From Veterinaerplatzvirus T145P1, in sequence record OZ035767.1: a stretch of 44,816 bases of DNA, one strand, 5' to 3'. A model generated the notes under the pieces. That model was not told the DNA's origin and made no database searches. It was given only the letters and a program-made list of their open reading frames with translations. The translations under genes and the position numbers were made by a program. Below are positions 20,547-44,534 of the stretch, piece after piece (position 1 is the stretch's first letter; every line of letters starts with the position of its first letter).

Positions 20547-20594
20547 GTAATAATACAACCGTCAGTGCGGAATGTCTTTAGCTATTCGTGCTAT
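20547..20594 (-). promoter_or_regulatory. conserved palindrome-promoter element, copy 3 (minus strand)
   Basis: Reverse complement reads ATAGCACGAATAGCTAAA ... TATTATTAC ... CATCGAAACGAAAC upstream of the lipoprotein gene. Confidence 0.5.
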
Positions 20595-20692
20595 TGCATA
20601 CACGTAACCGATGTAACTAGATGTATACAATCTCATCCGCGGAAAATGATATACGCACTGTTACGCAAATTTACGCATTGGTTACATTAAAA

Positions 20693-20750
20693 TATCTATA
20701 TATATCAACCTTTTACTCTTATTATTATTATTATATATATTACTGTGTAT
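20693..20750. repeat. AT-rich repeat copy A with (TTA)n microsatellite
   Basis: ATCTATATATATCAACCTTTTACT-(TTA)n-TATATAT..ACTGTGTATA; near-identical to 39261-39326. Confidence 0.8.
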
Positions 20751-20852
20751 ATCATGTAACTACTTCTATAGAGTGTTCCGGTTATAATTTTAATATCATG
20801 TGGATTTATACAGTATTGCGCTGCAGCTATACCAATGCACCCTCAGCAATAA

Positions 20853-21251
20853 ATGATATACACGATATACACGATGGTTACATTGAGCTATAGCTGGGCC
20901 GAGATGCTAAAAAACGTAACTAGTGCCAATGCCTACACGGAATTACAAGGATTCACACGTAAACTTAAATCAACGATTGGCAAAACCAATTGGACTGGTT
21001 ACGGTGCCGAATATATAGTTAACTCATCGAAAGCAAACAACCAGAGAGATACAGAAATGACCTACTACATTATCAAAGAGAAAAACAACGCACTGTTCGG
21101 TGATTGCTACTTTGGCGGCCCTGCTGGATATACCACAGATAAGAAAGAGGCTGACAGATTCGAGACTAAAGAAGAAGCCCGAGATGTGCTGACTGGTTAC
21201 TTCACTGAAGAAGATTTGAAGTCTGTTAAAGTGGTTAAGGTTAAGGAATAA
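20853..21251 (+). CDS. hypothetical protein (start uncertain; may be 21057)
   Basis: ORF emerges from the AT-rich repeat region; best RBS (GAGAGA) precedes internal ATG at 21057. Confidence 0.35.
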   Translation: MIYTIYTMVTLSYSWAEMLKNVTSANAYTELQGFTRKLKSTIGKTNWTGYGAEYIVNSSKANNQRDTEMTYYIIKEKNNALFGDCYFGGPAGYTTDKKEADRFETKEEARDVLTGYFTEEDLKSVKVVKVKE

Positions 21252-27504: not shown

Positions 27505-27984
27505 TCAAATCGTGCTGTTTTGCTCTTTCTTCTTTTGGTTCTCTAATTTTATCTTGCGCCATGAACGACACTCTGGCTTAGTGGCTAATTCAGCCTCAGT
27601 GACGACTCGCAGCATATGGCGCTTTTTGCACCGAAGTGTCAGCGGTTTCCCGTTGCCGTCGAATTGCAGGTCTGGTCGGCAGAATGTAGCGCGAAAACCT
27701 TCTCCATTTCGCTTATAGTAGTTGTGAGAAAGTTGAGCCCCACGCGCAGAAATCATACCGCGCTTAAACCATTCTTCTACAGCCTGTGGTGTTACCTTTA
27801 ACTGCTTTGCGATATTCGCCTTTGTGCCGAAGAAATCAAGAACTATCTCTAGCCGCGCGCGTAGCCCGGCTCTTACTTCATCTTTTAAAACATAGTAGCC
27901 TGAAGGTCGTTTACGTTGCTTTTTGTCTTCGGTGCGGATGGTTCCGTTATTGCCGTTAATTGTTCGCTTGTCGACTGTATTCAT
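27505..27984 (-). CDS. HTH DNA-binding protein, putative transcriptional regulator
   Basis: 159 aa, basic; HTH-like segment TKANIAKQLKVTPQAVEEWF; divergent from helicase promoter element. Confidence 0.5.
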   Translation of the reverse strand: MNTVDKRTINGNNGTIRTEDKKQRKRPSGYYVLKDEVRAGLRARLEIVLDFFGTKANIAKQLKVTPQAVEEWFKRGMISARGAQLSHNYYKRNGEGFRATFCRPDLQFDGNGKPLTLRCKKRHMLRVVTEAELATKPECRSWRKIKLENQKKKEQNSTI

Positions 27985-27996
27985 TTCATTACCTCA

Positions 27997-28040
27997 ATAG
28001 CATTTTTTGTTAAAAGTCATCCTGATTTGATGGTATTATT
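27997..28040 (+). promoter_or_regulatory. conserved palindrome-promoter element (variant), helicase operon
   Basis: ATAGCATTTTTTGTTAAAA - about 21 nt - GATGGTATTATT; sits between divergent regulator and helicase genes. Confidence 0.5.
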
Positions 28041-28085
28041 GTACTCAATTAAACGCTACAAGACAATTTTTATAGGAATTTAGAT

Positions 28086-30080
28086 ATGTTGCCTATCGAG
28101 AAGCTGGTTGCAAATTTCGATAAAGAAAGAATCAAACAGATTCAGAAAGACTATCAGTTTGGAGAGATAACCCCTTACGAATTCCAGTGCGTGACATTTG
28201 ATGCAATCGGAAAGGCTATTGGCAAGTACGAGGCACCATTTATCGCAGACCTTTCAGTATCTGCGGGTAAGACAATCATTCTTGCCATGATTGGTAAGCG
28301 CATGGAGCAGCTTGGGCTTCCCTATATGGTTCTCTCTCGCCAGTCAGAGATTATCAGCCAGAACTCAGAAGAGCTTCGTAATTTCGGCATACGTAATAGC
28401 GTCTATTGCGCTGGCCTTAACGTCAAATCAGTTTACTACCCAACTATAGTGGCCAGCGAGGGTACGGCAGCCAACGGCTTGTTTAAGGGGCTTGGTGACT
28501 ATGTTCCGGCAGTTATCGCTATAGATGAGTGTCACATGGTCGATCACATGGATATCGTGGAGGCTGAAGAGAATGAAGAAACATTTGAGCAAATGAGCAC
28601 AAAGAAAGGCGATATGGTTTTTAAGGATGGCGTAAACACAGGATTGCTTGGTACTGGTCGTGCGCAGTACACGCTAATTATCACCGAGATGAAACGTCGT
28701 TGTCGTGAGAAGTACGGGCGTGAGCTTCGTATATTCGGTCTTACTGGCAGCCCGTATCGTAACAACGATCATATCGTCGTTAGCAACCCAAACATCCGTG
28801 GATTCTGGCGCAAAACAGTGATTCAGGTGCCAACAAATTATCTGGTTGATTTGGGCTTCGTTGTTCCTACTGTTTATGGTGAAGTTGGTGACCTGGGTTA
28901 TGACCTTAGTGAGTTTGCGCCAGACGGAAGCGATGGCGTTAAAGACTTCAGCAAGAAAGAAATGGATGCAATGGCTGCAAAGATTCACGACAACCAATCA
29001 ATGACCCAAAAGATAATGGGTTTTGTTGTGAAAATACTCGAGACTCGTAACGCTGCATTGGTAACATGCGCTGGCAAACTCCATTGTGATGAGGCTGCTG
29101 CGGCACTACCAGATGGATACCCTTACGCCATCATCACAGACTCTACGGGAGAGAGGAAGCGCAGGGAGATTCTGGCTGATTGCCAGACAGGTAAGTACAA
29201 AATAATATTCCAGATTGGTTGTCTTACTACGGGCGTAAACCAGCCGCTGTGGGATACTAGCGTCATACTACGCAAGATTGGCAGCCTAACGCTTATGATT
29301 CAGCTTCTTGGTAGGGGGATGCGCAAACTTAATAGATCTCATATTGATGCTGGTTTTCATAAAGAAGATCACCTTGTGCTGGATTTTGCTGGCGCACTTG
29401 ATGATATGGCTGAGCTTTACTTTGACCCAATTATTGAAGAGATTCAGGCTGAGAAGTTTAAATCCTCAAGAAAAGGTGGCGATGAGGTTCGTCAGTGTCC
29501 GCAATGTGGATATGAAAATTCCCCATTCGCTCGTCGCTGTAGCAATAAGATTGATGGCGTTAGATGCGATCACTTCTTTCAGTTCACAATTTGCGAAGAC
29601 ATTACCGACGCGCAAACTAAATCGGTAATTAAAAAGGGTTGTGGCGCTCGCAATGACATAGCAGCAAAGGTTTGCAGGGAATGCGGCGAGATGCTTAAAG
29701 ACCCAAATGCTAACCTGACTGGCAAAATGTATCGTCGTGGTGATTACCTTCGTGTTTATGATTTTCAAGTTGGGTTAAGTAAGAATCAGACAGGCATTGT
29801 AGTTAAGTACAATATAATGGCTCATAACGGAGAGAGATTTAACGCTTGGGAGTTCTTTAATCCAGAATCAGACCATCGAGTTTGCAGTGTGCTCTGGAAG
29901 AACTTTTGCTTAGCTCATATTGAGAATCGCACGGAAGCGGCACGAATTGGCAGGCTTAAAAATGCCAGAATGATTATGACTAACGTAGATAAGTTCCGTG
30001 CGCCAGTTCAGGTTACGCATCGCCGGAATGCAAAAGGAAAGGACGTGATAGCGTTTAAGAATTTTGGAGAATTATTATGA
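28086..30080 (+). CDS. SF2 DNA helicase with C-terminal zinc-ribbon
   Basis: Walker A-like SAGKT, DECH box, QLLGRGMR motif VI, CPQCG...CRECG zinc ribbons. Confidence 0.8.
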   Translation: MLPIEKLVANFDKERIKQIQKDYQFGEITPYEFQCVTFDAIGKAIGKYEAPFIADLSVSAGKTIILAMIGKRMEQLGLPYMVLSRQSEIISQNSEELRNFGIRNSVYCAGLNVKSVYYPTIVASEGTAANGLFKGLGDYVPAVIAIDECHMVDHMDIVEAEENEETFEQMSTKKGDMVFKDGVNTGLLGTGRAQYTLIITEMKRRCREKYGRELRIFGLTGSPYRNNDHIVVSNPNIRGFWRKTVIQVPTNYLVDLGFVVPTVYGEVGDLGYDLSEFAPDGSDGVKDFSKKEMDAMAAKIHDNQSMTQKIMGFVVKILETRNAALVTCAGKLHCDEAAAALPDGYPYAIITDSTGERKRREILADCQTGKYKIIFQIGCLTTGVNQPLWDTSVILRKIGSLTLMIQLLGRGMRKLNRSHIDAGFHKEDHLVLDFAGALDDMAELYFDPIIEEIQAEKFKSSRKGGDEVRQCPQCGYENSPFARRCSNKIDGVRCDHFFQFTICEDITDAQTKSVIKKGCGARNDIAAKVCRECGEMLKDPNANLTGKMYRRGDYLRVYDFQVGLSKNQTGIVVKYNIMAHNGERFNAWEFFNPESDHRVCSVLWKNFCLAHIENRTEAARIGRLKNARMIMTNVDKFRAPVQVTHRRNAKGKDVIAFKNFGELL

Positions 30081-35347: not shown

Positions 35348-36931
35348 TCACCCCAGCAATCTCGGATTAATGTAAACTTTATCACCAATCAGGCACGTAT
35401 AGTTTTTCTCATCAAGCATTGGCAGTAAGTGATCTTTAATCTTCGTCATCACTCCAGCCTGAGCCTCGAACGGCTTAACCTTTCGCGCCGCTTCATACAA
35501 TGAGCGAATGCCAACAACACCCTTACCGTTTTTACCCTGCTTGATCAGGATATCAATCAGCTTATTCATCTCGGCATTGTCGCCAGCGTGACCAGCCGCG
35601 TTGGCAGATGACAAATAAGTCTTGCTAAGCTCCTGGAACATGATTACAGCTTCTTGCATGGTATCAAGCTCAATCTCTCTGGATTTCTGTGGACTCCCAC
35701 CGCTAGGGTTGAACCAGTTGCGCACTGTGTGAAGAACAGCAGCAATCCTGATAGCCTGCTTATCGAATTTACCCAGCGCGCCGCGCAACATTGTGTGGGA
35801 ATACTTACCGCCGTCCGCAAGGTGCGGCTCCATTTCCTGACGTGCCCGGTTTAGATATTTCATCGCTGAGTTGCTAACCGTCAACTTTACTTCTTGCTCA
35901 TTCATGATTTCGTGAACCAGGCGGAAGTAGTTAGCCTTAAGCTCACCATCAATTGGCTCGTAAGTTGAGTTGCCATTCTCATCGACGAATACACGCTCGC
36001 CAAGGAATGATTTTTCACGCACAAGTAGAAAACGTTCCGACACACCAATACCACGAGCACCAGCATTCATGATTGCGTTTATTGTCTCATCTTGCGCAAT
36101 TACAGAGATGCATCCCATAGCGACGAAGCTCATGTTGTTTTCTGCGTTCGCACGCGCAATGGACACGTTACCAGCATCCCACGCCTTGAGTACGAGCTCG
36201 CTGTTCGTTTTCTTTGAGCCATCACCATAGGTCATACCTAGCAGAGAGTTCACGCTCGTTGCTTCATCAGAGATAACCGCGAAGTTGCCCTGGCGGTTGT
36301 TTATTCGCGCAAGACCTTCAGGCGTCGTATCTGATACTGGAAATACGATATCGCACATCTTTTCCAGCTTCTCCTCTAAATCCTCTTTCTCCTCAAAGAG
36401 AGACGCCATCTCTGATGGTGACTTTTCCTGCTTCATCTCTTTGGATAATGCAGACAGCTTTGCCATAATCTTTTTACGCTCACGCTTTCGCACTTCATTA
36501 AGCCGCTCAGTCTCAGCAATCATTGGCGCAATAGAAAGCGAGTTAATTGCTGATTTACCTGTGGATGGTGGCTGACTGGTTACTACGTATAGAGAGGTCG
36601 GTTGCTGGGTTCCGTGATACTCTACTGTAAAACGTCCCAGCATGGCGGCAGAAATACACCCCAGAAAGTGCATATAAGCTGAAGACTCTGGAAATTGAAC
36701 AGAACGGGCAATATTGGCTGACAGCTTACCAACAACATCAATGTCATTACCGAGTGAGATTACTGGATACTTGTCATTAGCCGCATCAATCTCAACTGGC
36801 GCTTTCCAGAATGATTGAGACTGACGATATCCATTGGCATTAATAGCGACGCGCAGGGGTGGGAGGTTGTCTGCGGCAGCAATTGCCATAACCTGTTCAA
36901 CAGATAGCTTATCTTCGTTGAAATCAAACAT
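35348..36931 (-). CDS. P-loop NTPase of unknown function (possible replication/primase-associated ATPase)
   Basis: 527 aa; Walker A PPSTGKS and Walker B-like VISDEA. Confidence 0.55.
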   Translation of the reverse strand: MFDFNEDKLSVEQVMAIAAADNLPPLRVAINANGYRQSQSFWKAPVEIDAANDKYPVISLGNDIDVVGKLSANIARSVQFPESSAYMHFLGCISAAMLGRFTVEYHGTQQPTSLYVVTSQPPSTGKSAINSLSIAPMIAETERLNEVRKRERKKIMAKLSALSKEMKQEKSPSEMASLFEEKEDLEEKLEKMCDIVFPVSDTTPEGLARINNRQGNFAVISDEATSVNSLLGMTYGDGSKKTNSELVLKAWDAGNVSIARANAENNMSFVAMGCISVIAQDETINAIMNAGARGIGVSERFLLVREKSFLGERVFVDENGNSTYEPIDGELKANYFRLVHEIMNEQEVKLTVSNSAMKYLNRARQEMEPHLADGGKYSHTMLRGALGKFDKQAIRIAAVLHTVRNWFNPSGGSPQKSREIELDTMQEAVIMFQELSKTYLSSANAAGHAGDNAEMNKLIDILIKQGKNGKGVVGIRSLYEAARKVKPFEAQAGVMTKIKDHLLPMLDEKNYTCLIGDKVYINPRLLG

Positions 36932-38716: not shown

Positions 38717-38926
38717 TTTTGTTACCTTTTGAGTTTTTTTATTATCGACATCTCTTCAACGTACTCGCTACAACTCGGGATTTTACTCCCGGCCCGGCAT
38801 CCTAACAAAAGGACCCGATCGGCGCTTTGGTGGGTGAGGTAACGCTTCCTCACATTGCGCGGTAGTATTTACTCCTTTTGGTCTCTTTCGAGAGTGACTC
38901 AGAGTCTGCTACCGTGTCGATGAGAT

Positions 38927-38973
38927 TAAGTATACGCATAGTTAGCCACACTGTCTTTAGCAAAAAGTGCTAT
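38927..38973 (-). promoter_or_regulatory. conserved palindrome-promoter element (minus strand)
   Basis: Reverse complement: ATAGCACTTTTTGCTAAA - about 23 nt - TATACTTA. Confidence 0.5.
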
Positions 38974-38987
38974 TCGTTAGATTTATG

Positions 38988-39075
38988 TATTGTTGCAGAT
39001 ATTGCAATGATTCACTTGATTATTGCACATACAGCAATATTGCTTCCGATGCAATGATGTTTTTGATTGTTGCGA
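38988..39075. repeat. cluster of ATTGCA/TGCAAT half-sites and short palindromes
   Basis: ATTGCAAT (39001-39008), AGCAATATTGCT (39033-39044), plus repeated TTGCA/GCAAT units in the divergent control region. Confidence 0.6.
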
Positions 39076-39260
39076 AAAGTGAAATTAAGTGGTGAGTGAG
39101 TGAATGAAAGATGGATGGACTACCATACAAGTTGATTTTTACCAATCTATGGGAGCCTCACGGATATACGCGTATCCTCCGTATACTCAGTGTCGTCACA
39201 AAAGTTAGTGACCACTAACCTACGTTTTTACGCGATATATACACACGATATACAATATAA

Positions 39261-39326
39261 TATCTATATATATCAACCTTTTACTTTATTATTATTATTA
39301 TTATTATATATATGTATACTGTGTAT
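39261..39326. repeat. AT-rich repeat copy B with longer (TTA)n microsatellite
   Basis: Same unit as 20693-20750 with about two extra TTA triplets. Confidence 0.8.
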
Positions 39327-39533
39327 ACCGGTAATTGGTGAGATTATTGATATGTTCCGCGCAGATATTCTGACACCTGTCAGAAATGGATGGCATTGTA
39401 GGAATAAAAGGCACATATATAGGGAATGGCTTCAAAAATCTGTACACATCGGATACGGCACATTTACAACCAGCAATGGAGGGGCCTCTGGAGGCAAGAA
39501 GCGTATCCATGATAAAATAGACGAAAATATACA

Positions 39534-39566
39534 TTGACCGACACGTAAATAGATGGCAATATAGCA
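39534..39566 (+). promoter_or_regulatory. candidate early promoter with canonical -35
   Basis: TTGACC followed by GATGGCAATATAG -10 region and CACTGAAACGAAG leader; lacks the palindrome. Confidence 0.45.
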
Positions 39567-39602
39567 GTCACTGAAACGAAGTAAAACAAACGAGGTATCA
39601 AC

Positions 39603-40151
39603 ATGCAGAAAGTAACACTAGGTGAAGTTATCCGTGAGATGGTGCGCAACGCGATGGTGTCCGAGAGTGGTGAGTTTAAAGTTCCGGTTAGCCAGATATT
39701 CAAACTGGTTCGAGGCAAGGAATACCCTGAAATGGTGTATGACGAAGATACTAGTGAGATCCTCAACCTGGCAGATAGGGCGATGCCGGAACTAAAGAAC
39801 TCATACATCTATAACACAGTGTCGAGAATGACAGAGCTTCGCGATGCTAATAAGCGAGCGAGATATAAGTTCATCTGGATTGATGATGACGGAGAGCAAA
39901 CAAGGCCCGGTAGCTTCGACGGTGATGGCGCTGATAAATACCTGGTCATATACATTGAGAACGGCGCGCACTGGACTGGGAGTCGCGAAAAGAAAAAGCA
40001 GGAAGCGGAGAAAGAGGCGGCTATCATTGAAAAGTTCAAGTCTAGACTGCTCAAGCTGTCACCAAGTGTTGCTGGCTTGGAAGGTGAAGAACTTAAGGGC
40101 GCTGTTACAATGATTAATGCTTATCAGGAAATGATTAAGGAGACTAAGTAG
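39603..40151 (+). CDS. hypothetical early protein
   Basis: 182 aa, RBS GAGGT; first gene downstream of early promoter region. Confidence 0.55.
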   Translation: MQKVTLGEVIREMVRNAMVSESGEFKVPVSQIFKLVRGKEYPEMVYDEDTSEILNLADRAMPELKNSYIYNTVSRMTELRDANKRARYKFIWIDDDGEQTRPGSFDGDGADKYLVIYIENGAHWTGSREKKKQEAEKEAAIIEKFKSRLLKLSPSVAGLEGEELKGAVTMINAYQEMIKETK

Positions 40152-44457: not shown

Positions 44458-44534
44458 GCTCGAGTGGCGAAAGTGGATATCGCAAGAGACTTCTAATCTC
44501 TAGATTGCTGGTTCGAATCCAGCCTCGAGCGCCA
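44458..44534 (+). tRNA. tRNA-Arg (anticodon UCU), CCA encoded
   Basis: Hand-folded cloverleaf with all four stems fully Watson-Crick paired (7/4/5/5 bp); U8, A14, G18G19, U33; anticodon loop CUUCUAA; T-loop TTCGAAT; discriminator G then CCA. Confidence 0.9.

Follow-up and report, generated by a model that had tools for sequence, protein, structure and literature searches.

The AT-rich repeat unit at 39230-39330 in the 44,816-nt sequence of Veterinaerplatzvirus T145P1 (OZ035767.1, the whole of which is called the window here) could be the melting core of a replication origin module that is present twice per genome, at locus A (copy A, approximately 20.7 kb) and at locus B (copy B, approximately 39.2 kb); on the sequence features set out below, we regard this reading as evenly balanced between right and wrong. 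Directly established for the module are its anatomy, its conservation, its non-coding status, its extreme duplex instability and the presence of replication genes in the phage. The window is the genome of a T1-like siphovirus of the Drexlerviridae, subfamily Braunvirinae, and has the same gene order as phage Rtp. T1 is one of the seven classical T phages, and no mapped T1 replication origin was found in the literature. A conserved two-locus candidate opens the origin of a classical T phage, so far unmapped, to direct experiment.

An oriC-like origin was sought in phage SU57 and none was found (PMC7718038), and the description of phage TLS reports no lambda-type iterons in its genome and lists open questions on the family (PMC11447400). 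No earlier description of the module was found in the literature on T1-like iterons, AT-rich origins and transcription start sites, although a mention in the T1 or Rtp genome papers is possible.

Anatomy and duplex stability of the two copies

Copy B lies in an 885-bp spacer that divides a leftward operon of small genes, with its first ATG at 38717 on the minus strand, from a rightward operon opened by a DUF7174 gene (39603-40151, plus strand). A tRNA-Arg(TCT) gene at 44458-44534 closes the rightward early operon. Locus B is this divergent early spacer, and locus A, approximately 18.5 kb away, has a cor-like lipoprotein gene on one side and the recE module on the other. When the spacer (38975-39602) is searched against its own genome, copy A is the sole significant match, with 66 of 77 identities between 39251-39327 of copy B and 20683-20751 of copy A (E 1e-19). 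The initial annotation had described the unit as a second AT-rich copy with more TTA triplets, preceded by iteron-like repeats, and all of its elements are present where it placed them: the TTA run is (TTA)7.3 at 39286-39307, compared with (TTA)5.3 at 20719-20734 in copy A, and the repeat that it quoted, CGCGATATATACACACGATATACAAT, is at 39231-39256.

In copy B, four direct TAC-core boxes on the plus strand (39221-39256) have their cores at 39221, 39229, 39240 and 39251, with spacings of 8, 11 and 11 bp, and the iteron-like repeats are therefore boxes 2-4 of this series. Outlying boxes at 39163-39186 consist of a palindrome, ATACGCGTAT, followed by GTATAC, and WTACRC matches both strands there, at 39166 and 39170. 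The four boxes are followed on the right by a TATA-rich tract (39257-39285, plus strand) containing an IHF-consensus match, TATCAACCTTTTA, at 39271-39283, then the (TTA)7 microsatellite and ATATATGTATAC at 39286-39320, which is the least stable duplex in the window and the proposed DNA unwinding element, and finally an inverted box, GGTATACAC, on the minus strand at 39313-39329, complementary to 39240-39254 (15 nt, 80% complementary). Copy A repeats this layout at 20646-20758 on the plus strand, with TAC cores at 20652, 20662, 20672 and 20683, then an IHF-like site, (TTA)5 and an inverted box, GATATACAC, at 20745-20753 on the minus strand. The AT core is bracketed by inverted repeats in both copies, 39240-39254 with 39313-39327 in B and 20646-20657 with 20744-20755 in A. 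To the right of copy A, at 20855-20899 on the plus strand, two tandem copies of GATATACAC are followed by TTACATTGAGCTATAGCTGGGC.

The individual boxes are short (6-7 nt), and it is their arrangement that sets the two loci apart. WTACRC occurs 87 times in the genome against 76 expected, which is no enrichment, and only its clustering is enriched: the window has six phased pairs of TAC-core boxes, and the two spacers hold all of them. GATATAC occurs 12 times in the window (4.0 expected), half of them inside the two spacers, and the repeated box is better given as xTAC(G/A)C at a spacing of 8-11 bp than as GATATAC. Matches to the IHF consensus are likewise not enriched (four in the window, 3.1 expected), and two of the four are in the two units. 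A motif search found no DnaA boxes in locus A or B.

Duplex stability was calculated from nearest-neighbour energies over 40, 60 and 100 bp. At all three lengths the minimum of the window is in copy B (z 5.1-5.7), whose AT tract has a dG of -33.8 kcal/mol per 40 bp (z 5.1). Copy A ranks second at 40 and 60 bp (z 4.4 and 5.2), and the second-ranked 100-bp stretch, 20697-20796 (z 4.8), starts within it; outside loci A and B, the next least stable stretch of the window reaches z 3.2-3.5. The same ranking in seven whole genomes representing three lineages (the window, Rtp, EC3a, T1, 12397V, Msk and TH27) puts loci A and B in the first two places for low 60-bp stability in every one (z 4.5-5.7), with the third no higher than 3.8. 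Phased direct repeats beside an AT-rich segment and a local stability minimum are two of the marks of an iteron origin, and both are present here.

Two further palindromes lie close to the copies. The first, TTCTGACA cc TGTCAGAA, is a perfect 8+8 palindrome at 39368-39385 that is kept in phages JeanPiccard, Sd1 and 12397V and has no counterpart at copy A; it looks like an operator and is a candidate site for a dimeric DNA-binding protein. The second, AGCTATAGCT (20886-20895), is contained in TTACATTGAGCTATAGCTGGGC (20876-20899 in the window), approximately 130-170 bp to the right of the AT core. Elsewhere, TTACATTGAGCTATAGCTGGGC is found at 403-426 of L003 and at 281-304 and 26673-26696 of L004. 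Rtp and EC3a have it at both loci and DTL at locus B, whereas the window has it at locus A only, and the homology between A and B is therefore longer in some phages than in the window.

Conservation of the module and the open reading frame across it

We compared the window with the whole genomes of Rtp, EC3a, T1, 12397V, Msk and TH27 and with the spacers alone of JeanPiccard, Sd1, AHS24, RobRod40, e4/1c and DTL; remote loci were fetched through homologues of the DUF3987 protein. Exactly two copies of the module, at orthologous positions, are found in every genome examined, spanning Braunvirinae, Rogunavirinae, Tunavirinae and Nouzillyvirus, and its conservation is the same at locus A as at locus B. 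Runs of at least four TTA triplets occur at exactly two places in each whole genome except T1, which has no such run and whose two AT-richest 50-mers fall at the same two loci. The (TTA)n tract has between 4 and 7 repeats, depending on the locus. Six of the whole genomes, the window included, have runs of three phased boxes nowhere but in the two spacers, at most approximately 270 bp from the AT core; T1 is again the exception, with three-box runs at locus A only and a phased pair at locus B.

Alignment of 20 units from 11 phages reveals four invariant TAC cores, 8-11 bp apart (approximately 10.5 bp, in helical phase), immediately to the left of the AT core in 20 of 20 units, with the box consensus aTACGC, tTACGC, tTACGC and GTTACA. 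The boxes are followed by an invariant TATATA, a core that is either TATCAACCTTTTA or TAACAACCATTTA, at least (ATT)4, and an inverted box that is either CATGTAAC or GGTATACAC. The IHF consensus is exact in 12 of the 20 units and is present in both window copies. Compared with JeanPiccard, Sd1 and 12397V, which are 86-88% identical to the window over 39100-39610, the interval 39190-39330 is almost invariant and more conserved than the rest of the spacer.

A 115-aa open reading frame with a GTG start (39190-39537, plus strand) runs through the module, and the initial annotation had judged it probably not coding, with its poly-leucine stretch simply the TTA repeat in translation. Both judgements hold: the LLLLLL of the ORF is the TTA tract translated, and the frame is broken in close relatives. 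It stays open over 115 codons in the window, and small hydrophobic ORFs are annotated within the spacer of some relatives, which is what a real small protein with a leucine-rich membrane segment would have in its favor. However, in JeanPiccard, Sd1 and 12397V, despite their DNA identity, the frame is interrupted by 1-nt indels at 39229, 39236, 39405 and 39495 and by in-frame stops, and the longest stop-free runs shift to other frames. Substitutions across the ORF fall on codon positions 1:2:3 in the ratios 7:15:14, 12:16:15 and 8:19:19, and so there is no third-position excess. No Shine-Dalgarno sequence precedes the GTG, the ORF has no Pfam or PHROG match, and no homologous CDS is annotated in curated relatives. 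A real protein here is hardly credible, and ORFs called across the spacer, in this genome 39190-39537, should be removed from the annotation. Since the DNA of 39190-39330 is near-invariant even though the reading frame is broken, selection acts on the DNA itself.

In more distant phages the layout is recognizable with other boxes. A Klebsiella Webervirus retains in this spacer an AT-rich core that includes (ATT)4, beside a TTGCA-type cluster, with different flanks. The Logan contig ERR5982104_284 (L040, 4772-5769), from a metagenomic relative whose helicase is 53% identical to that of the window, contains a spacer of approximately 1 kb upstream of the DUF3987 operon, in which at least eight GGGCGAA boxes in both orientations surround an 80-nt AT core. 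The box types among relatives comprise TTACGC, GTGTAACAG and GGGCGAA. Co-evolution of an origin with its initiator would be expected to keep the layout in this way while the box sequence changes in distant relatives. In IMG/VR viral contigs, a scan with GAGCTATAGCTGGGC returned 24 loci, mostly chance matches in unrelated phages, the relevant ones being only Rtp, EC3a, DTL and one contig of an uncultivated virus. A distant BLAST search found no match to the module in plasmids. Concerted evolution of copies A and B is unsupported, Sd1 pairing a window-type B with a different A core; this combination suggests modular exchange between phages.

Flanking promoters, the packaging region and alternative functions

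What kind of promoters flank the module, and could the module itself be one? At the head of the leftward early operon is ATAGCACTTTTTGCTAAA (38956-38973, minus strand), a promoter element of the 21-nt direct-repeat type. The 21-nt repeat, ATAGCWNNNNTTGNYWAA, has 13 copies in the window against 0.03 expected, at 2116, 9293, 22881, 26459, 27997, 30493, 31534, 33446, 38956 (minus strand), 40242, 40539, 42076 and 43453. In the aligned copies, TATAGT and a conserved CATCGAAACGA leader follow approximately 22 nt downstream, which suggests that the 21-nt repeats replace the -35 element, as in an activator-dependent promoter. Such 21-nt direct repeats have already been described for TLS and T1, and like the AT-rich module they are intergenic elements of Drexlerviridae (PMC11447400). 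Unlike the 21-nt repeat (aaATAGCACnnnTTGnTAAAA), which has its 13 copies one upstream of each operon, the AT-rich TAC-box module has only two copies and is absent from that description (PMC11447400). The rightward operon has a sigma70-type promoter at 39534-39562 on the plus strand, assigned by eye from the sequence and not listed by the promoter scan, with TTGACC (39534-39539), a 17-nt spacer and a TG-extended CAATAT in a conserved block. The unit had been placed between an ATTGCA palindrome cluster and a canonical -35 element, and this position is borne out by the TTGCA/TGCAA cluster at 38988-39075 and the TTGACC. Each promoter stands apart from the module at a distance of 200-300 bp, one to its left and one to its right, and the module therefore lies between divergent promoters, a location that fits a transcriptional control region and an origin equally well.

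A promoter inside the unit was rejected as its main function: sigma70 matches there reach only 9 of 12 positions, and their -10 hexamers are the TTA repeat itself. A sigma70 promoter with UP element was likewise rejected, the would-be spacer crossing the tract of 4 to 7 repeats. No conserved -35/-10 hexamer pair is present in the alignment of 20 units. The variable (TTA)n length favors a melting element, because a melting element tolerates length change and a promoter spacer does not. A structured non-coding RNA can also be set aside, with no notable Rfam match and a fold no better than shuffles: Rfam searches at gathering and permissive thresholds returned only a tRNA and two sub-threshold chance matches, and when each strand of the two units was folded singly, using DNA parameters only, the z scores against shuffles were -0.8 to +0.55.

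The main rival to the origin reading is a transcriptional control or architectural region that serves the divergent early promoters and has no role in replication. In it, a phage regulator, for instance the Cro/CI-like HTH protein encoded at 27505-27984 or small early proteins, would use the phased boxes as operators or enhancers, and the AT tract with its IHF-like site would give curvature or looping. Loci A and B are each flanked by divergent transcription units, HTH regulators are among the phage's gene products, conserved palindromes are nearby (39368-39385 and, at 20886-20895, AGCTATAGCT), and the unit contains the weak sigma70-like matches already mentioned. Against this, the boxes do not overlap either promoter and stand 200-300 bp from each, direct repeats approximately one helical turn apart beside the least stable DNA are unlike the usual layout of palindromic operators, the variable (TTA)n length sits poorly with fixed promoter geometry, and a third divergent junction, at 27984-28086, has no such module. 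We judge a purely regulatory role to be unlikely, though deserving of more weight than any of the other rivals. Among these, a region without sequence-specific function, either a slippage-prone microsatellite in an AT-rich spacer or what is left of a small mobile element after a single duplication, is very improbable. Microsatellite length does change easily, as the 1-nt indel in the copy A tract among near-identical isolates illustrates, and inverted repeats do bracket the unit, but the copies stand at orthologous positions in all the genomes examined, from Braunvirinae to Nouzillyvirus, the box cores are invariant while their flanks diverge, 39190-39330 exceeds the surrounding spacer in conservation, and neither further copies nor a plasmid match was found. 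A miniature mobile element is rejected on the same exact count of two copies at orthologous sites in every genome.

A connection with DNA packaging has also to be considered. IHF sites are known at lambda cos and P1 pac, and an IHF-bent arm beside the TTGCA/TGCAA cluster at 38988-39075, which is outside the AT-rich unit and a candidate pac or terminase-binding region, could aid terminase assembly and make the AT unit an accessory of pac. Locus B is approximately 200 bp from the cluster, within whose homologues the T1 record (positions 1-56) and the Rtp record (1-45) start, and the genome end and pac of SU57 have been placed in the same untranslated region (PMC7718038). The cluster is a better pac candidate than the AT unit, and the AT unit as the pac site itself was rejected, since the records start in the cluster instead and copy A has none. 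An accessory role is improbable too: copy A, 18.5 kb away, has the module without a TTGCA cluster (a single ATTGCA, at 20593), and the module is equally conserved at both loci.

Replication genes and comparison with known origins

The origin reading calls for an initiator, and a candidate gene, in the leftward operon running from locus B, is that for a 527-aa DUF3987 protein (35348-36931, minus strand). Neither sequence nor profile searches against the PDB gave a match to this protein, and an NCBIfam search added nothing; only the fold search is informative. Its AlphaFold model has a pLDDT of 89, and the best PDB matches in Foldseek are all MCM subunits (E down to 4e-6, probability 1.00, TM approximately 0.35), so that an MCM-like AAA+ fold is confidently predicted. 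DUF3987 proteins have been described as MCM-related SF6 helicases with a C-terminal winged helix and proposed to be phage replicative helicases (Kazlauskas et al. 2016, PMC4889955), and helicase activity has since been shown for one of them (PMC11724360). The N- and C-terminal segments of the DUF3987 helicase are more divergent than its core, which is the sole hint of a link between the protein and the boxes. The protein is a candidate for the replicative helicase or for one that binds the origin. Besides it, the phage has genes for a zinc-ribbon primase, a second helicase, an SSB and a RecE/Erf recombination pair, and none for a polymerase.

From the anatomy of the module and this gene content we infer protein binding, unwinding and initiation at the module, along the following lines. 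A phage initiator would bind the four direct TAC-core boxes, which lie on approximately one helix face, and the inverted box beyond the AT core, and the IHF-like site would be the place of a DNA bend. Negative supercoiling from the two flanking divergent promoters would help to open the (TTA)n/TATA tract, the least stable DNA of the genome, and the MCM-like DUF3987 helicase and the phage primase would be loaded at the opened tract, where a host polymerase would take over. A more specific proposal is that T1-like phages have two paralogous origins approximately 18 kb apart, each with phased boxes and an inverted box bracketing (TTA)n between divergent promoters, that these are recognized by the DUF3987 winged helix, and that box specificity switches between genera; we put this forward tentatively, with doubt outweighing belief. 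Eukaryotic and archaeal MCM, and the viral E1 and T-antigen helicases, load head-to-head, and by analogy it is a speculation that the DUF3987 helicase might do likewise at these origins. If the origin reading is true, these phages offer a bacterial-virus model for origin recognition by an MCM-like helicase.

Two origins in one virulent siphovirus would have a precedent in Bacillus phage SPP1, which reportedly has oriL and oriR (in work attributed to Pedre et al., 1994, and Missich et al., 1997). Like loci A and B, these are two separate loci with short initiator boxes and an adjacent AT-rich region. There is, however, no sequence similarity to the SPP1 origins, of which oriL is part of gene 38, the initiator gene, and no protein identified in the window is related to the initiator G38P; moreover, the origin activity of SPP1 is proven, whereas the window loci are candidates from sequence. 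The module is also reminiscent of lambda ori, pSC101 and R6K gamma, which likewise have direct repeats on approximately one helix face beside an AT-rich unwinding element, and an IHF-type bend site such as the module may have; at lambda ori and in iteron plasmids, nearby transcription probably aids opening. Their boxes are 17-22 nt long, compared with 6-7 nt in the module, and the module is intergenic, not inside an initiator gene, and present twice. No lambda O- or Rep-like initiator is encoded by the phage. Satellite phage P4 (ori and crr) and the SaPIs have short octamer-type iterons, to which a helicase-type initiator binds through its C-terminal domain, and P4 resembles the window in having two cis sites kilobases apart; SaPI origins resemble the module in that iterons flank an AT-rich core. 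The P4 and SaPI initiators are SF3 helicases, unlike the window's candidate, the MCM-like DUF3987 protein.

The two loci also leave a trace in deposited sequences. Between the window and the deposited T145P1 assemblies OZ035765, OZ035786 and OZ035793 there is a difference of a 1-nt deletion in the locus A TTA tract at window position 20731, so that (TTA)5 of the window is (TTA)4 there, and a coordinate offset of approximately 246 bp that arises within the interval of 21-38.7 kb between loci A and B. The phiJLA23 (KC333879, 92-290) and Jk06 (NC_007291, 45908-46072) records have an end at locus A, and those of Rtp, SU57 and OzMSK start or end at locus B. Record ends at the two loci may reflect assembly breaks at the repeat together with a convention of starting the record near pac, and the repeat may account for such breaks in some of these phages.
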